From positions 13,319,904-13,383,903 of the forward strand of contig NC_057719.1 in assembly GCF_004010195.1 (NCBI RefSeq): a DNA stretch of 64,000 nucleotides, read 5' to 3'. Below are positions 452 to 63,612 of this stretch, one piece after another (position 1 is the first letter of the stretch; each line of letters opens with the position of its first letter). The translations under genes and the position numbers were made by a program. This DNA is from Chiloscyllium plagiosum (taxonomy: Eukaryota). Below the pieces are notes generated by a model. The model had not been told where the DNA came from. It saw only the letters and a list, made by a program, of their open reading frames with translations, and searched no databases.

Positions 452-690
452 GATGTTGGCTTGCTCACTGAGCTGCAAGGTTCATTTTCAGACACTTCAT
501 CACCAAACTAGGTAACATCATCATGGTGCTTTCAATTTATGTGTTTAGGTTTCCTTGGGTTGGTGATGCCATTTCCCATGGTGGGTCATTTCCTGTGGTG
601 ATGTCATTTCCTGTTCTTTTTCTCCGGGGGTGGTAAATGGGATCAAAGTCAATGTGTTTGTTGATAAAGTTCTGGTTGGCAATCTTTCCT
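452..690 (-). mobile_element. Penelope-like element (PLE) fragment
   Basis: Minus ORF NFINKHIDFDPIYHP matches the peptide at 43136+; degenerate hammerhead-like arm at ~485-525. Confidence 0.65.
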
Positions 691-784: not shown

Positions 785-1381
785 CAGGGGTGGGGAACCT
801 GCTTAAGGCTGCATGTGGCCTTCTAGGGCATTGTGTGTGGCCTTTTGAATGAATCCAAATTTTGCAGAACAAATCTTTTATTTTTTATTAATATGCTTTT
901 TCTCGTCCTTTATTATTTTTATTTTAATCTTAAAATAAATGACACTGAGAAAGATCTGATTGAAATATGGAAAAATGCAATAGAATACTCATGCCTTCGG
1001 CAACATGTACGAAAAATGCCTTCTTGCTTTTCAACCACTTATTGCTGCGAATCTACATTCTCCTACTTAACCAAAATCAAGACGCCCTTAAGGTCACAAA
1101 TGATGGATACCCATCTAGAGGATTAGCTAAAACTGCAGACCTCCATGCTGCAATCAAATATTCAAATGCTTTCCTACAAAAAGCAGTCACAACCATGTCA
1201 TTAAAAGGTTAGTTAACTTTAGAATTAACATTTTTTTTAGTTAGTTAATACATAGTAGTTAGATTTTTACAAAATAATGTGAATTTTGAAGAATATATAA
1301 TTGAAGTTTCTTGGATGCGGCCTTATTAGATTACAACTAACATAATGCGGCCTTCCAACATGAAAAAGTTCCCCACCTCTG
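785..1381 (+). mobile_element. hAT (Charlie-like) internally deleted DNA transposon
   Basis: TIRs CAGGGGTGGGGAAC / GTTCCCCACCTCTG; 8-bp TSD tgctaaag/tgccagag; hAT C-terminal dimerisation-like peptide FSTTYCCESTFSYLTKIKTPLRSQMMDTHLED. Confidence 0.85.
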
Positions 1382-5683: not shown

Positions 5684-6199
5684 TTGGAGATGCCGGTGTT
5701 GGACTGGAGTGTACAAAGTTAAAAATCACACAACACTAGGTTATAAATCTGTGGTGTGAACTTATATGTTGTTTTGCTCAAAAACTGCAAGAATCCATGT
5801 AAGATTCTATAAATCCCTTTTTTAGATAAGAATCAGTCTGAACATTGGGGCACAGACAGCCTCACACAGGGCACCTCACACCTTCAATGCATTATCTGCG
5901 CTGACATGGCATCTATTGTTAAAGTTCACTTGCGAACGTAATTTTTAAAAAAGTTCTGAGATTTACATTTGAAAGAACTGAAACCATCATGGTTATTCTA
6001 AAAGATGAGCAATTTAACAAACAATCAAGGTATTTTTCAATATATCATTTCAGTTACATCACACTGTAAACTTATGCTATAAATTCTGTGTCTTATAATT
6101 GTCTCCTCTACAACCACCTGATGAAGGAGCAGTGCTCCGAAAGCTAGTGCTTCCAAATAAACCTGTTGGACTATAACCTAGTGTTGTGTGATTTTTAAC
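5684..6199 (+). mobile_element. PLE-derived element family A (~500 bp, inverted terminal arm, 3' hammerhead)
   Basis: 5' arm gttaaaaatcacacaacactaggttata is inverted at the 3' end; body homologous to 31620-32088. Confidence 0.8.
6115..6149 (+). ncRNA. Minimal type I hammerhead ribozyme motif (family A)
   Basis: CAC-CTGATGA-a-GGAGC-agt-GCTCC-GAAA-GC-TA-GTG: core, stem I, stem II and palindromic AGCT all present. Confidence 0.7.
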
Positions 6200-11007: not shown

Positions 11008-11217
11008 TCAAGATTAGAGTGGTGCTAGAAAAGCACAGCAGGTCAGGCAGCATCAGAGGAGCAGGAAAATTGATGTTTCGGGCAAAAGCCCTTAATCAGG
11101 AAGGGCTTTGCCCGAAATGTCGATTTTCCTGCTCCTCAGATGCAGACTGACCTGCTGTGCTTTTCCAGCACCACTCTAATCTTGGCTCTAATCTCCAGTA
11201 TCTGCAGTACCCACTTC
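11008..11217. mobile_element. Fold-back PLE-derived element family C with 16-bp TSD
   Basis: TSD cactgtttggtaactg at 10992-11007 and 11218-11233; ~90-bp inverted arms meeting at overlapping hammerhead remnants. Confidence 0.9.
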
Positions 11218-14495: not shown

Positions 14496-14785
14496 ATCTT
14501 CATCTCAGTCCTAAATGATCGGCCTTGGAATTGTGCCCTTGTATTGAGATTGTTCAGCCAGGAGAAGCAACCTCTCAGCGCCCACCCTGTCAAGCCCCTT
14601 CTGAATTCTACACGGTTCAATGTCATCATCTCGCCAAGGAATTAAGGTGCAATTTACTCAGCATCTCATATTGGGGACAAGTCTCACATTCCAATAATCA
14701 ATCTAGTAAACCTTCACCATCAGAAAATGTCTGCTCCTTTCAAAATTCAGCCATTAATTGTACACTATCCTTGCATAAGGGCTGA

Positions 14786-15034
14786 TACAGTGAAGGAGAA
14801 AGTGAGGACTGCAGATGCTGGAGATCAGAGTCAAAAGGTATGGTGCTGGAAAAGCACAGCCGGTCAGGCAGCATTGAGGAGCAGGAGAGTTGATGTTTCA
14901 TCAGGAATGTTGAAGATCTTATGTTCAAACGTCGATCCTCCTGCTCTTCCGCCTGACTGACTGTGCTCTTCCAGCACCATGCCTTTTGACTCTGATCTCC
15001 AGTATCTGCAGTCCTCACTTTCTCCTTCACTGTA
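14786..15034. mobile_element. Fold-back family C element
   Basis: tacagtgaaggagaaagtgaggactgcaga... / ...tctgcagtcctcactttctccttcactgta, ~85-bp arms. Confidence 0.85.
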
Positions 15035-15094
15035 ACAGCCCCTACTCAAAGGTAGTGTACAATAAATGGCTCAGGTTTGAAAAGAGCAGACAAA

Positions 15095-23616: not shown

Positions 23617-23810
23617 TGGAAATGCTGGTGTTGGACTAGGTGGATGAAGTCACATGACACCAGATCATAGTTCAACAGGTTTATTTGAAATCACAAGCTT
23701 TTGAAGTGCTGCTCCTTCATCACCTGGCGAAAGAGCTGTGCTCTGACAGCTTGTGATTTCAAATAAACCTGTTGGACTATTACCTGGTGCCATGTGACTA
23801 CTTGTCCTGT
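23617..23810. mobile_element. Fold-back family B element
   Basis: Arms aggtttatttgaaatcacaagct / agcttgtgatttcaaataaacct around degenerate hammerhead cores. Confidence 0.75.
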
Positions 23811-31619: not shown

Positions 31620-32088
31620 CGTTTGTGGGATGAATTTATACTTTGCTCAAAAACTGTATGAATCTGTGTAAGACTCTGTGAACTCACTTTTTAGATTAGA
31701 ATCAGTCTAAACATTATGGCACAGACAGGGAACATAGGGGGCTAACACCTTCAACATCTTACCTGCGCTGACACCAATTGTTACAATTAACCTGAGAATG
31801 TAACTTTTAAAAAAGGTTTTGTGATTTACATATGAAAGAACTATCATGGTCATTCTAACAGATGAGAGACTCCACAAACAATCAAGGTATTATTTAATGT
31901 ATAATTTCAGTTACATCACACTGTAAACTTTTGCTATAAATCCTGTGCCTTACAATTGTGTCCTTCACAACCACCTGATGAAGGAGCGTCGCTCCGAAAG
32001 CTAGTGCTTCCAATTAAACCTGTTGGACTATAACCTGGTGTTGTGTGATTTTTAACTTTGTACACCCCAGTCCAACACCGGCATCTCC
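31620..32088 (+). mobile_element. Family A element with complete 3' arm
   Basis: Homologous to 5684-6199; ends ...tccaacaccggcatctcc. Confidence 0.85.
31972..32006 (+). ncRNA. Minimal type I hammerhead ribozyme motif (family A)
   Basis: CAC-CTGATGA-a-GGAGC-gtc-GCTCC-GAAA-GC-TA-GTG. Confidence 0.75.
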
Positions 32089-32936: not shown

Positions 32937-33686
32937 GGATGTCGGTGTTGGACTGGGGTGTACAAAGTTAAAAATCAGGGTCTAGATTAGAGTGGTGCTG
33001 GAAAAGCACAGCAGGTCAGGCAGCATCCAAGGAGCAGGAAAATCGATGCTTCTGGCAAAAGCCCTTCACCAGGAATGGAGGCAGGGTGCCTACAGAGTGG
33101 AAAGTTAAAAATCACACAACACCAGGTTATAGTCCAACAGGTTTAATTGGAAGCACTAGCTTTCGGAGCACCGCTCCTTCATCAGGTGGTTGTGGAGGAT
33201 ACAATTGAAAGGCACAGAATTTATAGCAAAATTCATCACACTGTAAAGTTTTGCTATAAATTCTGTGTCTTACAACTGTGTCCTCCACAACCACCTGATG
33301 AAGGAGCAGCATTCTGAAAGCTAGTGAGGTTAGATTCCCTACAGTGTGGAAACAGGCCCTTTGGCCCAACCAGTCCACACTGACCCTCTCAAGAGTAACC
33401 CACCCAGACCCATCCCCCTCTGACTAATGCACCTAACACTATGAGCAATTTAGCATGGCCAATTCACCTGACCTGCACATCTTTGGACTGTGGGAGGAAA
33501 CTAGAGCACCCAGAGGAAACACAGGGAGAATGTGCAAACTCCACACAGACAGTCACCTGAGGATAGAATCGAACCTGGGACCCTGGTGCTGTGAGGCAGC
33601 AGTGCTAACCACTGAGCCACCGTGCCACCCCAACTGCTTCCAATTAAACCTGTTGGACTATAACCTGGTGTTGTGTGATTTTTAAC
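32937..33686. mobile_element. Fold-back family A element with nested family C arm (32978-33100) and HE1-type SINE (33327-33630, minus)
   Basis: 14-bp TSD aaagttaaaaatca at 32964-32977 and 33101-33114. Confidence 0.85.
33154..33188 (-). ncRNA. Minimal type I hammerhead ribozyme motif on the host sense strand
   Basis: Reverse complement CAC-CTGATGA-a-GGAGC-ggt-GCTCC-GAAA-GC-TA-GTG. Confidence 0.75.
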
Positions 33687-33794: not shown

Positions 33795-34090
33795 TCTCAG
33801 GAAGATGAAAGGCTCTGGCCCGAAACGTCGACTCTCCTGCTTCTCGGATGCGGCCTGACCTGCTGTGCTTTTCCAGCACCACACTCTCAGCTTTTAGAGC
33901 TGAAAAATGTGTTGCTGGAAAAGCACAGCAGGTCAGGCAACATCCAAGGAGCAGGAGAATCAACGTTTTGGGCATAAGCCCTTCTTCAGGATTCTCCTGC
34001 TCCTTGGATGCTGCCTGACCTGCTGCGCTTTTCCAGCAACACATTTTTCAGCTCTGATCTCCAGCATCTGCAGGCCTAACTTACTTCCCT
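33795..34090. mobile_element. Cluster of family C arms/fold-back
   Basis: gcccgaaacgtcgactctcc...; gagctgaaaaatgtgttgctggaaaagc / gcttttccagcaacacatttttcagctc. Confidence 0.8.
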
Positions 34091-37045: not shown

Positions 37046-37153
37046 CTGATTAGGAGATTTGACAACCATCTGATGAAGGAGCGTCGCTCCGAAAGCTAGT
37101 GCTTCCAATTAAACCTGTTGGACTATAACCTGGTGTGGTGTGATTTGTAATTT
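37046..37153 (+). mobile_element. Family A mini-insert with 12-bp TSD
   Basis: TSD tgtggaggagga at 37034-37045 and 37154-37165. Confidence 0.85.
37067..37101 (+). ncRNA. Minimal type I hammerhead ribozyme motif (family A)
   Basis: CAT-CTGATGA-a-GGAGC-gtc-GCTCC-GAAA-GC-TA-GTG (U-G wobble in stem I). Confidence 0.7.
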
Positions 37154-41240: not shown

Positions 41241-41817
41241 GTAATAAAATATTATTGGGAAGAACAGCTGTTGTTGCCCATTCCTATTAATCCTGGAGAA
41301 GATACAATAATTTGCTCAACTATGTGCTCAAGCCCCAGCCTCATCCATTTTTGCTGTGGACTTTAGAAAAACCGTCACTTTTCTTGCCAGCTCATTCCAC
41401 ACCAGGACTCATCATTAGTTCTGCACGTCAAAGGAGAGACAGATTTGAACATATTACATTTGGTGCCCAACAGATTTAGTTGTTATTCATTCAATGTGCT
41501 TGGCCTTCATCTAGTGCTTTTGGGCTTCATTCACACTCTGCCTGTACTGCCTACTTCAACAGGACTATCCAGTTTACTTTAGCTCCTTTTCTCTGCTGCT
41601 AACCCACTCCTTGGTGGGTAATCTCCCACCTCCTCCACCTTGTATTTTCAAGGTAAAAGAATGTCATGGGCATCTTTGTTATTAAGAGAAAGAAAATCAA
41701 TTCAGCTGCCTCTTGGCTTCTGTTCTTCGCTTTGACAACATCCAGTCAAAACTTTACATGCTCTGGACCTGCACCTGTTTCTCCAGATTCTCTACCATTT
41801 AATACCAAATTCATCTT

Positions 41818-42818
41818 GACCACCTAGTAATCTCCCAGTCTGGCATGGCAGTCTCCTGGCCTGGCCTGGTGATCTCCCAGTCTGGCATGACCGTCTCCTG
41901 GCCTGGCCTGGTGGTCTCCCAGTCTGGCGTGACCGTCTCCTGGCCTGGCCTGGTAATCTCCCAGTCTGGTGTGACCGTCTCCTGGCCTGGCCTGGTGGTC
42001 TCCCAGTCTGGCATGACCATCTCCTGGCCTGGCCTGGTGGTCTCCCAGTCTGGCGTGACCGTCTCCTGGCCTGGCCTGGTAATCTCACAGTCTGGTGTGA
42101 CCGTCTCCTGGCCTGGCCTGGTCATCTCCCAGTCTGGTGTGGCCGTCTCCTGGCCTGGCCTGGTGGTCTCCCAGTCTGGTGTGACCGTCTCCTGGCCTGG
42201 CCTGGCCTGGTGGTCTCCCAGTCTGGTGTGGCAGTTTCCTGGCCTGGCCTTGTGGTCTCCCAGTCTGGTGTGACCATCTCCTGGCCTGGCCTGGTGGTCT
42301 CTCAGTCTGATGTGGCCGTCTCCTGACCTGGCCTGGTGGTCTCCCAGTCTGGTGTGGCAGTCTCCTGACCTGGCCTGGTGGTGGCCTGGCCTGGCGAGGC
42401 AGTCTCCTGACCTGTGATGGTGGCTTTCAGCAGTATGTTGCAGTCTCTCAGCCCAGCGCGGTGTTTCTTCAACGGCCCATGATGGTCTTTCGGCCCAGTG
42501 AGGCCTCAGTGTGGACCTCCGGCCTCGAAGTAATTCCAGAGTGGTCTCCCAGCCTTGAGAGCCTCAGGGTGAAGTTTGGTAGTCTGCAGTCAAGGCCTAT
42601 TGCAGTCTGGGGGCTTAGTGCCATGTGGAAAGGGTTGGAAGAATTGTTATTCTGAACTTTTCATTTCTTGATTTTCGAATTTTTTTCCCAAATAACTTGT
42701 ACTGAAGTATCTATACCTTGGTACCTTGTACCTGAGATGAGCCATAAGTGGCGACTTGTGAACTTTTCACTGTACTCATGTGAGTACATGTGACAATAAA
42801 GCAAATTCAATTCAATTT
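41818..42818 (+). mobile_element. Composite non-autonomous retroposon: 42-bp VNTR, unique body, AATAAA/(AATTC)n tail
   Basis: 10-bp TSD aattcatctt at 41808-41817 and 42819-42828; tail gtacatgtgacaataaagcaaattcaattcaa. Confidence 0.65.
41828..42412. repeat. 42-bp GC-rich VNTR, ~13-14 copies
   Basis: Unit ctcccagtctggcgtgaccgtctcctggcctggcctggtggt. Confidence 0.95.
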
Positions 42819-43082
42819 AATTCATCTTATCTCTAAGACTCCTCTGCCATTAACCTATTAAACCATTGTCTCTTCTATTCTGTCCCCAATGCTGCCTGAC
42901 TGTAAAATGTTGCTTTGCCCCCTTCTGTGGGCTAGTCTAGAATGAGAGGTCAGGGTAAGAGATCAGGATAGTTTCAGGATAAGGGGTGACAGATTTAAAA
43001 CAGAAGTGAGAAGATTGTGAGAAGATTTGTAGCTCGGGTGCTCGTTGCTGTGGTTCTGTTCGCCGAGCTGGAAGTTTTTGTT

Positions 43083-43122
43083 GCAAACGTTTCGTCCCCT
43101 GTCTAGGTGACATCCTCAGTGC
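43083..43122 (-). ncRNA. Identical hammerhead motif in the inverted arm (host sense strand)
   Basis: Exact reverse complement of 43362-43401. Confidence 0.8.
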
Positions 43123-43361
43123 TTGGGAGCCTCCTGTGAAGCGCTTCTGTGGTGTTATAGGGCAGGCGAAACAAAGAACAGCCAGGGAATTCCTAGAAGC
43201 TTGGCACTCATCCACAAACTCCATCAACAAACACATAGACCTGGACCCAATATACCGGCCACTACAGCGGACAGCTGAAACTGACAAGCGGAAGCGGCAG
43301 GGACAGGCTACTATAAATGCCGGAGGAAACACCACAGAAGCGCTTCACAGGAGGCTCCCAA

Positions 43362-43401
43362 GCACTGAGGATGTCACCTAGACAGGGGACGAAACGTTTG
43401 C
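43362..43401 (+). ncRNA. Minimal type I hammerhead ribozyme motif (PLE pLTR)
   Basis: GCA-CTGAGGA-t-GTCACCT-agac-AGGGGAC-GAAA-CG-TT-TGC. Confidence 0.8.
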
Positions 43402-44559
43402 AACAAAAACTTCCAGCCAGGCGAACAGAACCACAGCAGAAGTGAGAAGAAATTATTTCTCTCAAATTCTCTCAATCAGTGCATTTCACAATCCCAGAGT
43501 GCAGTGAATGCTGGGTAAATTTAAGGGGGAGGTAGACAGAGCTTTAATGAGCCAAGGGTTGAAGTGTTATGGACAATGGGTAGGAAAGTGGAGTTGAGGC
43601 TGAGATGATGATTGCATTAAATGGCAGATCAGGTTCAAGGGGTTGAACTGCCTCATTCTGCCCCTCTTTCAGTTGTTGTTAGCATTACTCTCCACAGTTT
43701 CATACATCTTCAAAAATTAACAAACCCATGTAAGCTTGTTAAATTCTGGCAAATTCTTCTCCAATCTCCTCAAAGTCCTTGAACCTTTTAAGTTTTAATT
43801 TCATGTTCTTTTTCTCAAGTGAATCTCTAGGCCTAACCTCACAAAGGGCACTCTCCATCCTTCTGAACCTCTCCGCAATCTTTGGTGCAGTGAACCACAT
43901 CGAATCCAGAAACGAAACTAGCTTTCTGATCAATTTGCCACCAAGGCGTGTTTACTTGGAGGCATGAGTGAAGTGTTAGTGTATGTGCACATCATGACCT
44001 TTCCATTCACATTGTGAATGACTGGAGGAGCTGTGGTTTAAAGAAAGGAATCCCTTGTCATACGATAGAGCTCACAAGATCTCCAAGGAAGTGAAAATCT
44101 TTAACCTTTTGCGAAATATATTGGATTGATTGACTCTGAAAAAAAAACAAGCCTTCCCTTCATTTTCTGCAGGTGTGACATTTGCCTTCAAGTTAAGCGC
44201 ACCCCTTTATCACCAGAACAAGCCTGTCTTTTTTGCAGGAGGGTTTAATAAAGTTGGACTGGATGACCGAAGCTACGGTAGGCTGAAGCTGACAAAATGC
44301 ATCAAAGTTATTGCATTTTACTTCAAGCAGAAATAAACAAAAAGGAATGAAACCAGCATCCGGCTGTCTGGAAGTTGAGGAACTACTACGGACGAAAACT
44401 TCAGTCTCTGAAACACAGAGCTGAAGAACCTTCAACCATAAACCGATCAGAAAGATCAGATGTACCATGGCCTGGTGACAGGGAAATCCTACTGGGGTAA
44501 ACAACTTGATCATGGGGTTGCGACTGGAATTCCTCGGCCCCTTTTCTGCATTCATATTT

Positions 44560-44909: not shown

Positions 44910-45041
44910 TGTTGAGAGTGTGGTGCTGGAAAAGCACAGCCAGTCATGCAGCATCCAAGGAGCGGGAGAATCAGTCTCCTGCTCCTTGGATGCTGTCTAA
45001 CTGGCTGTGCTTTTCCAATGTCTGCAGTCCTCACTTTCTCC
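44910..45041. mobile_element. Short fold-back family C element
   Basis: gaaaagcacagccagt...gcagcatccaaggagc / gctccttggatgctg...ctggctgtgcttttcc. Confidence 0.75.
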
Positions 45042-53864: not shown

Positions 53865-55420
53865 CGTAAAAGCAGGACAAATCCAACCCGGCTAATTACC
53901 GCCCCATCAGGCTACTCTTGACCATCAGTAAAGTGATGGAAGTTGGCATCAACAGTGCTATCTAGCAGCACCTGCTCAGCAATAACCTGCTCAGTGATGC
54001 CAAATTTGGGTTCTGCCAGGGCCACAGGCTCCTGACCCCATTACAGACTTGGTTCAAACCTGGGCAAACGAGCTGAATTCCAGAGGGTAAGGGGAGAGTG
54101 ATAGCTCCTGACATCAAGGCCACATTTGACTCAGTGTGGCATCAATAAGCCCTAGTAAACTGGAGTCAATGGCTATCGGGGCAAACTCTCTGGTAGTTGG
54201 AATCATACGTTGCATACCTAGGAAGATGGTTGTGGTTATTGGAGGTCAGTGATCTCAGCTCCAGTGCATCCCTGCAGGAGTACTTCAGGTTAGTGTCCTA
54301 GGCCCAACCACCTTCAACTGCTTCATCAATGACCTTCTCTCCATCATATGGTCAGAAGTGGGGATGTTTGTTGATGATTGCACAATGTTCAGCAACATTC
54401 ACGACTCTTCCAATACAAGCAGTCCATGCTCAAATGCAATGCGATCCAGACAACATTCAGGCTTGGGTTGACAAGTGGCAAGTAAAATTTGTGCCATGCA
54501 AATGCCAGGCAATGATCATCTCCAGTGAGACAATCTAATCACTGCCCCTTGACATCCAATGGCCTTAGCCATCATAATCCCCTACTATCAATGTCCTTTG
54601 GGTGATGAGTGAGTGGAAATCCAACAGGACTCACCACATAAACACAGTGGAGAAGGTGAGGACTGCAGATGCTGGATATCAGATTGACAAGAGTGGTACT
54701 GGAAAACCATAGCAGGTCAGGCAGCATCTGAGGAGCAGGACAGACAACGTTTCAGGCATAAGCCCTTCATTAGGAATTCCTGATGAAGGGCTTATGCCTG
54801 AAATGTTGATTCTACTGCCTCTTGGATGGTGCCTGACAGGCTGTGCTTTTCCAGGACCACACTTTTCGATATACACAATGGCTACAAGACATGATCAGAA
54901 GCTAAGAATATTGCATCGAGTAATTCACCTCCAAAGCATATGCATCATCAACAAAGCACATGACAGGAATGTGTTGCAATATTCCCACAACACTCAAAAC
55001 TCTTGGCACCACATCCAAAAACATCCACTCCCTTCACCACTGGAGCTCAGTAGCAGCACTGCGTACTATCTACAAGATACACTATAGAAATTCACTAATG
55101 ATCCTCAGACAACACCTTCAAAATCCATGACCATTTCCATCTCAAGGACAAGAGCAGCACATACATGGGAAAACCACAATCTGCAAGTTGCCCTCCAAGC
55201 CACTCACCATCCTGATTTGGAAATATATCACTGTTCCTTCACTGTTGCTGGGTCAAAATCCTGGAATTCCCTCTCTAATGGCATTGTGGGTCAACCCACA
55301 GTACATGGACTGCGGGGGTCGAAGAAAGCGGCTCACCACCACCTTTTCATGGGCAACAAGGGATGGGCTATCAATGCTGGCCCAGCCAGCCACACCCACA
55401 TCCCACTAATGAAGTAAAAA
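53865..55420 (+). mobile_element. CR1/L2-clade LINE (second family), RT to 3' end, decayed
   Basis: KQDKSNPANYRPI, FGFCQG, SVLGPTTFNCFINDL, WVDKWQVKF; tail shared with second-family SINEs. Confidence 0.88.
54649..54868. mobile_element. Fold-back family C element with back-to-back hammerhead remnants
   Basis: ttcaggcataagcccttcattaggaattcctgatgaagggcttatgcctgaa palindrome; ~13-bp TSD ataaacacagtgg/atatacacaatgg. Confidence 0.85.
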
Positions 55421-58279: not shown

Positions 58280-58853
58280 GGGGAGGCAATGGTGAAGGTA
58301 GTGATATTATGACTGGCCAGTTAATCCAGAGTAGACAGGCTGAAGGCTGGAAGAACACAGCAAGCCAGGCAGCATCAGGAGCTGGAGAAGTTGACGTTTC
58401 AGGTGCTGATGTAGGGTTACGCTCAAAACGTCAACTTCTCCAGCTCCTGCTGCTACCTGGCTTGCTGTGTTCTTCCAGCCTTCTGCCTGTCTACTCTGGA
58501 TTCCAGCATTTGCAGTTTTTTGTCTCTGTTAATCGAGAGACCCAGTTAATGTGCTGGGAGCATGGGTGTGAATCCTGCCATGGCAGATGGTGGAATTTGA
58601 ATTCAATAAAACAAAACCTGGAGTTAAGAGTCGAATGATAACCATGAATCCATTACTCATTGTTGGGAAAAACCCATCTGGGTCACTAAATCTTTTTAGG
58701 GAAGGAAACAGCCATCATTATTCAGTCTGGTCTGCATGTGACTCCAGACCCACAGCAATGTGGCCAATTCTCAACTACCTGCTGGTCAGTTAGAGATGGG
58801 TAATGAGTGTTGGCCTAGCCAGTGATGCCCACATCCCCAGGAATGAATAAAAA
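58280..58853 (+). mobile_element. Second-family SINE with nested fold-back family F element (~58331-58527)
   Basis: TSD gttaatccagag/gttaatcgagag; arms ggctggaagaacacagcaagccagg / cctggcttgctgtgttcttccagcc. Confidence 0.85.
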
Positions 58854-61269: not shown

Positions 61270-63612
61270 AGTTTAAACATTGTAAAATATTCAGGGAAAA
61301 GGATAGACCTGGTCCACAAGTTAAGGGTCCACACTGGGGCAAGGCCAGTTTTGATGGATTGGACAGGAAGCTTTCAAAAGTTGATTGGGAGAGGCTGTTC
61401 ACAAGCAAAGGGATGTCTGGAAAGTGGAAGGCTTTTGAACATGAGATCACAAAGGTTAAGAGCCAGCATGTTCCTGTTAGTGTGAAGGGCAAGGCTGGCA
61501 GGAGGAGGGAACACTGGATGACTGGAGATATTGAGGCTCTGGACATAGAGTCATAGAGATGTACAGCATGGAAACAGACCCTTCAGTCCAACCCGTCAGT
61601 GCCGACCAGATAGGGCAACCCAATCTAGTCCCACCTGCCAGCACCCAGCCCATATCCCTCCAAACCCTTCCTATTCATATACCCTTCCAAATGCCTCTTA
61701 AATGTTGCAATTGTACCAGCCTCCACCACTTCCTCTGGCAGCTCATTCCATACCCATACCGCCCTCTGTGTGAAAAATATGTCAGGTATTGGCAGCTGGG
61801 ATCAAGTGACTCCTTGAGGAGTATGGGAATAAAGGAATACACTTAACAGGGAAATCAGGACAGTAACAGGAGGACATGAGATAGCTTTGGCAGGTAAGAT
61901 TATGGAGAATCTAAAGAAATTTGAAAAGTATATTCAGAGCAAAAGAATAACTAGGAAGGGAATAGGATCTCTTACAGGTCAATGGGGCCATATTTTGCAT
62001 CAGTTTTTACTGTGGAGAAAGATATGGAAGCTAGGGAACTCAGGGAAATAAATAGTGATGTCTGAAAAGAGTCCACATTTCAAACAAGGAAGTGCGGGAG
62101 GTCTTAAAACACAGATAGACAGATAAATCTCAGGGCCTGACCAAGTGTATGCCAAGACATTGCAGGAAGCTAGGGAAGAAATTGCGGGGCCCCTAACAGA
62201 GATATTTATATCATCGACAGCCATGGGTGAGGTGTCCGAATACTGGATGGTGGTTAATGTTGTGCCATTACTGAAGAAAGGCAACAAGAAGTCAGGCATC
62301 TACAGACCGGTGAGCCTGACATCAATGGTAGGTAAGTTGTTGGAGGGGATTTTGAGAGACATGATTTACATACACTTAGAAAGGCAAGGACTGATTAGGG
62401 ATAGTCAGCTTGGGCTTTGTGCGTGGGAAATCATATCTCACGAACTTGACTGAGTTTTTTGAAGAGGTGACCAAGAGGACGGATGAAGTCAGAGTGTTAG
62501 ATGTCTACATGGACTTTAGCAAGGCCTTCAACAATGTTCTGCATAGTAGACTGGTTAGTAAGATTAGATCACATAGGATCCAGGGAGAGCTGGCCAATTG
62601 GATACAAAATTGGCTTGACAGTAGGGACAGAAGGTGGTGGCAGCGGATTGTTGTTCACACTGGAGGCTGATGACCAGTGGTGTGCCGACAGGATCAGTGC
62701 TGGGTCCACTATTCTTTATCATTTATATAAATGATTTGGATGAGTATATAGGAGGTACGGTTAGTAAGTTTGTGGATCACACCAAATTTAGTGGTACAGT
62801 GGACAGTGAAAAAGGTTATCCGAGAGTACAACGGGATCTTGATCAAGTGGGCCAGTGGGCCAAGGAATGGCTGAGGGAGTTTAGATTAATGCGAGCAGTT
62901 GCATTTTGGTAAGACAAACTGGGGAGGACTTACACAGTTATTGGTACAGCCCCTGGGAGTGTTGTCAAACAGAGAAATCTAAGGGTGCAGGTACACTGTT
63001 CCTTGAAAGTGGTGTCACAGGTAGATAGGGTGGTGAAGTAGGTGTTTGACACAGTTGCCTTTATCGGTTAGTGCATTGAGAGTGCAGGAGTTAGGATGTC
63101 AGCTCTACAAGACAACCACTTTTGAGTACTACATACAATTCTGGTCATCCTGCTATAGGAAGGATGTTATTAAACTGGAAAGGGTGGAAAAGAGATTTGC
63201 AAGAATGTGACCGAGGGTTTGAGGCTGAATAGGTTGAGATGTTTTTCCCTGGAGTGTAGGAGGCTGGGGAGGTGACCTTACAGAGGTTTATAAAATCATG
63301 AGAGATGTAGATATGTCAAGGTATTTTCCCCAGGATGGGGGAGCTCAAAACTAGGGGGCATAGATTTAAGGTGAGAGGAGACGGCTATAAAGGGGACCTC
63401 AGGGGCAACTTTTCCACACAGAAGGTGGTGTGTATATAGAAGGAGCTGCCAGAGGAAGTGATAGAGGTAGGTACAAATACAACATATGGATAGGTACATG
63501 GATGGGAAAGATTTGTAGGGATACCGGCCAAATGGGATTAGTCCAGTTTAGGAAAACTGATTGGCATGGACAGGTTGGACCAAAGAGACTGTTTCCCTGC
63601 TGTATGGCTCTA
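61270..63612 (+). mobile_element. Long decayed CR1 ORF2 (RT) to 3' end
   Basis: EEIAGPLTEIF, YRPVSLTS, YMDFSKAF, SGVPTGSVLGPLFFIIYINDLD, SKFVD; frameshifts and stops. Confidence 0.93.
61543..61776 (-). mobile_element. Young CR1 3' end nested in older CR1
   Basis: Nearly identical to 34493-34730. Confidence 0.9.

Follow-up and report, generated by a model that had tools for sequence, protein, structure and literature searches.

A 436-bp segment of bamboo shark (Chiloscyllium plagiosum) DNA carries two copies of one hammerhead ribozyme motif on opposite strands, which raises the question of how this arrangement arose and whether the ribozymes have a role where they now lie. We analyzed the segment within a 64,000-nt stretch of forward-strand sequence (the window, to which all positions refer). 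It is almost certainly a 5'-truncated, noncoding insertion from a Penelope/Poseidon-type retrotransposon family that is abundant in bamboo sharks. Its layout is the routine insertion pattern of Penelope-like elements (PLEs), and the hammerhead pair is a by-product of that pattern, not a switch.

The segment is flanked by an exact 14-bp repeat (43001 to 43014 and 43437 to 43450, both on the forward strand) that cannot be extended. The probability of such a match by chance is about 7e-6 (a rough estimate for 40 x 40 positions around the element's termini), and the 14-mer is the sole exact one to recur 300 to 600 nt downstream within positions 42600 to 44100; across the window, such recurrences begin at 1,659 of 63,987 positions. 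In a related species (organism B), a 384-nt contig (X10 record 10) joins 42788 to 43000 directly to 43437 to 43606, with one copy of the 14-mer and without the 436 bp. Because this empty site holds a single copy, the 14-bp duplication is a true TSD, as the earlier note on this sequence had claimed. Over 879 positions in four pieces of organism B flank, 34 depart from the window, gaps counted. The empty site therefore places the insertion after the split of the two species or makes it polymorphic across that split, and the locus is usable as a presence/absence marker for comparing the two shark species. On polymorphism within organism A, X1 record 7 spans the right junction with only 17 nt of the element, and X5 record 18 departs from the window sequence at 43004.

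The earlier note had also called this a young Penelope insertion. The insertion is fairly recent but not brand new, since several of its positions depart from the family. Four of 24 listed sequencing runs (three DNA-type and one RNA) were compared with the window, and among the 40 variants listed of 148, positions 43165, 43201, 43288, and 43309 differ from 97 to 100% of the family depth in X1, while 43418 and 43419 differ from the left arm and from 28/28 and 27/28 RNA reads. No host gene was found among 96 stop-to-stop frames of at least 90 amino acids, a test that short exons would escape; its frame list comprised 141 frames of at least 85 amino acids, from which short and low-complexity ones were dropped. 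The three Pfam matches were all to transposon domains. Remnants of a hAT transposase and of a reverse transcriptase lie at 827 to 1123 (+) and 62395 to 62909 (+).

Between the TSD copies lies a head-to-head pair of end-repeats. The arms that pair with each other (43046 to 43156 and 43328 to 43438) are 111 nt each and complementary at 109 of 111 positions, which bears out the near-perfect inverted arms of about 110 bp described previously, except that the left arm is longer. Family contigs match the window up to 43011, so positions 43015 to 43045 are element sequence and the left arm measures 142 nt (43015 to 43156, minus strand), forming an inverted, 5'-truncated pLTR with a long 3' end. The 31 to 33 nt absent from the right arm form a "tail" (43015 to 43045, minus strand) that corresponds to codons 23 to 33 of the parent open reading frame (ORF), its translation being found in protein P0051. 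By its complementarity to the left arm, the direct end-repeat, with a short 3' end, occupies 43328 to 43436 (+); the next two nucleotides (43437 and 43438) fit both the direct arm and the TSD. Relative to the parent ATG, the arms end at +66/68 (right) and +99 (left). At the inversion junction, family contigs of the direct part begin at 43155, inside the left arm, leaving a 2-nt (TT) microhomology at 43155 and 43156. Published PLE insertions have the same structure: an inverted pLTR, a TSD of 9 to 10 bp, and a 31-bp tail are given as typical (PMC3846280), the inverted-pLTR scheme appears elsewhere with a tail of 30 to 40 bp (PMC8557442), and the structure is repeated in PMC8969392.

The central part identifies the parent. 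Positions 43157 to 43381 (+) hold the last 74 codons and the stop codon of an ORF encoding a reverse transcriptase (RT) and a GIY-YIG endonuclease. The 74-residue peptide had 9 matches among 299 candidates, the best being P0001 of Chiloscyllium punctatum (92%, E 9e-36); the proposal that a PLE endonuclease C terminus lies here is thereby confirmed. The remnant (43157 to 43378) covers the end of the endonuclease domain and a C-terminal extension; the GIY-YIG/CCHH core is absent. The order of inverted arm, ORF end, and direct arm is as originally described, but the peptide does not stop short of the arm: its frame crosses the 5' half of the direct-arm hammerhead and ends at 43379 to 43381, in loop II.

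P0001 itself combines an RT core with a GIY-YIG domain in which a pair of cysteines separates the boxes (C..C between VVY and YIG, with histidines downstream), and its linker has no extra zinc finger. The YVDD and VVY..YIG motifs can be read directly, and C727, H746, and H762 are invariant in 13 sequences. Pfam matches were all below the cutoffs (RVT_1, E 3e-6 on P0001; GIY-YIG, E 0.03 on P0005 and P0006), and a PDB sequence search with P0001 returned two unrelated matches (E 0.04). The start of the ORF comes from the end-repeat: the ATG at 43371 to 43373 (mirrored in the left arm at 43113 to 43111) opens a 33-residue frame that aligns with residues 1 to 32 of the full-length ORF P0014 at 50% identity, a score reached by none of 5,000 shuffles. 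The other two frames scored at shuffle level against the same N terminus. The peptide from this ATG is 94% identical in P0051, one of three matches in a search of five candidates, and P0051 continues through a DKG motif, present also in 18 of the 19 longer homologues printed, into the RT. P0051 and P0001 overlap with 88% identity and together span the parent ORF from start to stop; arithmetic on the two alignments suggests an ORF of about 837 codons. Its start and stop overlap within 11 nt of the end-repeat.

With RT and GIY-YIG, CCHH, DKG, a pLTR with a hammerhead, an inverted copy, a tail, and a TSD, the parent family has the features of an EN+ PLE, and it is assigned to the Penelope/Poseidon clade by these motifs. 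What defines the Penelope/Poseidon type is a CCHH motif whose two cysteines fall between the GIY and YIG boxes (PMC8557442). The Neptune and Nematis clades were considered and rejected, as P0001 has only one cysteine in the 70 residues before VVY. The nearest long homologues of P0001 are flatworm ORFs at about 44 to 50% (40 matches among 4,602 candidates). Two side observations concern related coding sequence. NCBI gene models of isoforms of NT5DC1, MAP3K7, and NUDT6 in C. punctatum (P0003, P0007, and P0053) end in parent-element coding sequence, which reflects either exonization or misannotation, and the window retains, at about 603 to 680 (minus strand), an old remnant from the end of a related PLE endonuclease (50 to 62% to the shark proteins).

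Each arm contains a minimal type I hammerhead: copy 1 at 43083 to 43122 (minus strand; predicted cut after 43086, ATG at 43113 to 43111) and copy 2 at 43362 to 43401 (plus strand; predicted cut after U43398). Read in their own senses (43122 to 43083 and 43362 to 43401), the 40-nt motifs are identical. In copy 2, helix I is formed by 43362 to 43364 and 43399 to 43401, the core by 43365 to 43371, an extra U by 43372, and helix II by 43373 to 43390, with the GAAA box at 43391 to 43394 and a palindromic ACGU at 43394 to 43397. The motif thus has the features of minimal hammerheads: CUGANGA and GAAA boxes, a nucleotide separating position 9 from 10.1, a G10.1-C11.1 pair, a palindromic 15.2-16.2 segment, and helices I and II. 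Helix III is absent. The hammerhead pattern matched the 64-kb window twice, both times here, against 0.03 matches expected and none of 100 shuffles reaching two, and the two matches, being copies, amount to one independent event. No Rfam hammerhead model matched the window; its 14 matches at E values of at most 1 were all below gathering thresholds, were to microRNA hairpin models, and lay outside the element. The link between PLEs and hammerheads dates from 2014 (PMC4209133), and it is physical here as the earlier note proposed: the ORF stop lies in loop II, and P0051 contains the peptide that begins at the hammerhead ATG.

The note's "two identical intact hammerheads" are indeed identical and on opposite strands, but "intact" holds only in the sense of motif completeness. 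Helix I has 3 bp, helix II contains an A.G mismatch, and the cut triplet is GUU. When the 40-mer was folded alone, helix I paired with a probability of 0.79 to 0.86 and the base of helix II with 0.94 to 0.97, at an energy no different from that of shuffles (z 0.06). We considered GUU as a private inactivating change and rejected it, since it is a family polymorphism: C makes up 0.32 (X1), 0.26 (X5), 0.66 (X10), and 0.50 (X21) of the depth at position 17, and 13 of the 27 hammerhead rows from other PLE loci, some of them near-duplicates, have U17. GUU is listed as a cleavable site, with GUC and GUA the fastest (PMC3138052). An active dimer in cis was likewise rejected, because each strand has one sense copy. 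When two 40-mers were cofolded, the palindrome paired between molecules and helix I opened.

Five members of a second minimal-hammerhead family, with the palindrome AGCU and the cut triplet CUA, lie elsewhere in the window (6115 to 6149, 31972 to 32006, 33292 to 33326, and 37067 to 37101 on the plus strand; 33154 to 33188 on the minus strand). Two of them form a head-to-head fold-back with opposite-strand hammerheads (33154 to 33326), and 31929 to 32059 pairs as an inverted repeat with 33101 to 33231. A TATA-like box, the same as the present element has at 43312, lies about 40 nt before the hammerhead core in four of the five copies, with boxes at 6078, 31935, and 33255 (+) and 33225 (-). Homology of the five other window hammerheads with the present pLTR was considered and rejected, as alignment scores of 12 to 15 compare with shuffle means of 14 to 16. 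The suggestion that this insertion anchors the interpretation of noncoding hammerhead families therefore survives as an analogy but not as sequence similarity. Other repeats in the window include a tandem array with a 42-nt unit and 21-nt substructure (about 41800 to 42560) and further short fold-backs (11009 to 11184, 14728 to 15092, 23648 to 23799, 33804 to 34055, 44927 to 45017, 54683 to 54870, and 58323 to 58502), some of which draw subthreshold Rfam microRNA matches. A short, very abundant repeat lies at about 42730 to 42820; RNA reads ending at 42815 to 42817 carry poly(A) (37 and 52 reads), so copies of this repeat supply transcript ends somewhere.

Whether the hammerheads act at this locus depends on how a transcript would fold. 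A 450-nt RNA across the insertion folds at -269 kcal/mol (z -21; reached by 0 of 100 shuffles), and read-through RNA from either strand pays about 80 kcal/mol when forced into the hammerhead fold; the competition between hairpin and ribozyme that the earlier note predicted is thus reproduced in silico. That note went further and proposed the long hairpin as a built-in off-switch, a regulatory device silencing the ribozyme in the transcript. The stability of the hairpin, and its elimination of the hammerhead fold, are what such a device would need, but an "on" state is not evident: whichever strand is read through, the antisense arm precedes a single sense ribozyme, whose motif is already fully paired as it emerges. 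In addition, single minimal hammerheads are reported to show no cleavage, with low cleavage by dimers (PMC4209133), organism B lacks the insertion, family copies have differing centers, and the unique flanks had no RNA reads (depth 0 in a sample of about 2% of one polyA single-cell run, a weak test). With the layout itself routine for PLEs, we regard a regulatory off-switch as highly improbable. In all likelihood the hammerheads are without function at the insertion locus, because the sense ribozyme is buried in a 111-bp duplex and each is a lone minimal hammerhead without helix III.

One route could evade the hairpin. An RNA starting between the arms would escape it, and in such an RNA the hammerhead penalty is 2.5 to 5.2 kcal/mol. 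A TATA-like box of putative function lies upstream of the direct arm at 43312 to 43318 (+), 53 nt upstream of the hammerhead core, and in X10 three joints lead into the direct part at 43342, which is 30 nt past this box; entry at 43342 may mark a transcript start. In the RNA run, 667 reads matched the element. Only 11 did so with at least 99% identity and 87% continue into other sequence, so the matched reads come mostly from other family copies. Their first mates are mostly opposite to the element sense (176 versus 20 at 43040 to 43083; 105 versus 26 at 43304 to 43347), which, given the usual library type, means sense RNA. No pileup of read ends was listed in the RNA run, whose library type shows such ends poorly.

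The inverted repeats near both ends, the TSD, and the summed depth of the element, very high in each of the three DNA-type runs (though not a copy number), might suggest that the 436 bp move as a unit, in the manner of a nonautonomous fold-back family, MITE-like or retrozyme-like. We find this scarcely credible. Summed depth drops about fivefold at the bin with the inversion junction and at the last right-arm bin, the arms are unequal, and the tandem array of same-sense hammerheads seen in retrozymes is missing; identity as a non-LTR retrozyme was rejected, with one hammerhead per strand and no tandem family over the element. The centers also vary. Among the 15 joints listed of 163, six connect the left arm with the direct part elsewhere than at this center, and these off-center joints occur in contigs of all three DNA-type runs. 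Joints of this type often stem from other repeats; we read the variable ones as other family copies with the same layout and other centers. Against generality of the layout, a strict scan of 80 unrelated PLE loci found hammerheads at 25 and on both strands at none, though inverted repeats of at least 50 nt occurred at 19.

How, then, could a PLE insertion acquire an inverted end? The route that we somewhat favor is priming from both target strands. The element's RT-endonuclease would make a 14-nt staggered cut, and both target strands would prime reverse transcription on element RNA. One strand would start at the far site (+99 from the ATG) and yield the left arm with its tail, about 142 nt; the other would start at the near site (+66 to +68) and yield the direct part, some 280 nt long. 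Both cDNAs would then be joined at TT, gap filling would duplicate the target, and both hammerheads would be copies of the parent end-repeat. A minority family variant common to both arms (C43048/G43436, where the alternative letter makes up 76% of X1 depth) fits a single source for the two.

A possible, though less likely, alternative is that the same element owes its inversion to fold-back self-priming or to a template switch, on a single nascent strand or an antisense template. Self-priming was proposed for head-to-head PLE repeats with palindromic junctions, and PMC3846280 favors it on an antisense template; copying one arm from the other would also yield arms alike at 109 of 111 positions. 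Here, however, the junction has no palindrome, only the 2-nt microhomology, and the left arm cannot have been copied from the right arm as inserted, because it carries the 31- to 33-nt tail that the right arm lacks. Moreover, both outer ends of the element coincide with loose ends of family contigs or reads (43011; 43044 to 43049). Two-strand priming has its own difficulties. It is drawn from one set of junctions, and the twin priming of LINE-1, which it resembles, has itself been called unvalidated (PMC10760644). At the left junction, the last 9 nt of the TSD (43006 to 43014) match the element tail at 43017 to 43025, 2 nt further on; strands may have annealed and slipped where the left arm was primed, and slippage or a local duplication may have shaped that end. 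Our literature search found no paper joining Penelope-like elements with twin priming. Taken as a whole, the account of identity, idle hammerheads, and insertion route is very likely the best explanation of the locus.

The parent end-repeat suggests a further idea. The extra nucleotide of the hammerhead core completes the AUG of the ORF, since the ATG formed by A9-U-G10.1 (43371 to 43373, +) is the parent start codon, and the stop falls in loop II. The predicted cut after 43398 follows the A of the ATG by 28 nt and is upstream of both arm ends, hence ahead of both putative reverse-transcription start sites. Because the start codon is 5' of the cut, cleavage would remove it from the parent mRNA, and protein-assisted cleavage would in this way convert mRNA into template. 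The hammerhead of the shark family, like that of some other Poseidon-type families, could thus be wired into translation, with cleavage as a feedback switch on the parent RNA and with insertions like this one recording both RT start sites in support of two-strand priming; we offer this combined proposal as speculative and rather unlikely. The start codon's position in the hammerhead has already been described for an anole element, and start-codon removal as feedback is not proposed in the accessible text of PMC11167929, PMC8557442, or PMC13725137. What PLE hammerheads are for is unsettled according to PMC8557442 and PMC11167929, so the overlap of start, stop, and cut is a lead worth keeping; if true, the feedback reading would give the PLE hammerhead a job. 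A general rule that the bulged nucleotide always belongs to a start codon was rejected, as an ATG occurs there in 9 of the 27 hammerhead rows (from 25 of the 80 loci), several with short open frames. Separately, five loci of an unrelated PLE family (L002, L034, L036, L058, and L075) have an ATG at hammerhead position 9 followed by 51 to 65 open codons; in L058 the frame from this ATG reaches the ORF across one frameshift.

This kind of insertion is already known, and the locus represents no new system; our literature search found no paper on this shark PLE family. With TSD, empty site, tail, microhomology, and both ORF ends within 450 bases, it is a clean teaching example. Comparison with Pen2/Pen2a of Adineta vaga (PMC3846280) revealed the same head-to-head 5' inverted end-repeat with a 31- to 33-nt tail on one arm, a short TSD and matching empty site, truncation at the 5' end, and an end-repeat containing the first ORF codons; the shark copy is much shorter (436 bp, 74 codons) and lacks an upstream direct pLTR. 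Its 14-bp TSD compares with the 8 to 10 bp of EN+ PLEs (PMC3846280, PMC8557442). Among coding sequences, full-length PLE ORFs of Dicrocoelium and Spirometra/Sparganum, whose hosts are flatworms (P0014, P0016, and others), share about 44 to 50% over most of P0001, and the peptide that starts in the hammerhead matches the N terminus of P0014 from residue 1.

The shark hammerheads share with the minimal hammerheads of metazoan PLEs (PMC4209133) the core boxes, the extra nucleotide between 9 and 10.1, the G10.1-C11.1 pair, the palindromic 15.2-16.2 segment, the lack of helix III, and the occurrence in opposite-strand pairs, described there as dual motifs 100 to 700 bp apart; they differ in the 3-bp helix I, the helix II mismatch, and GUU. 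PLE-derived hammerheads have also been linked to retrozymes (bioRxiv 10.64898/2026.07.22.740005), and non-LTR retrozymes likewise contain a type I hammerhead from a PLE end-repeat, but these carry tandem same-sense hammerheads and no coding sequence, whereas the shark copy has one inverted pair and an ORF remnant. For Poseidon PAc of Anolis carolinensis (PMC11167929), the enzyme is reported to cut and extend both target strands and to initiate at two internal sites, which mark the limits of the tail; the ribozyme is protein assisted, and insertion does not need it. Both PAc and the shark family have two internal start sites one tail apart in AC-rich sequence, the ORF of each begins where helix II begins, and the cut follows the ORF start at a similar distance, 26 nt in PAc and 28 nt in the shark family. 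The ends differ, those of the shark at +66/68 and +99 comparing with a PAc start site given as +111 to +118. The shark hammerhead, in addition, encloses the stop codon of the ORF, a feature for which we found no statement in the accessible text on PAc.
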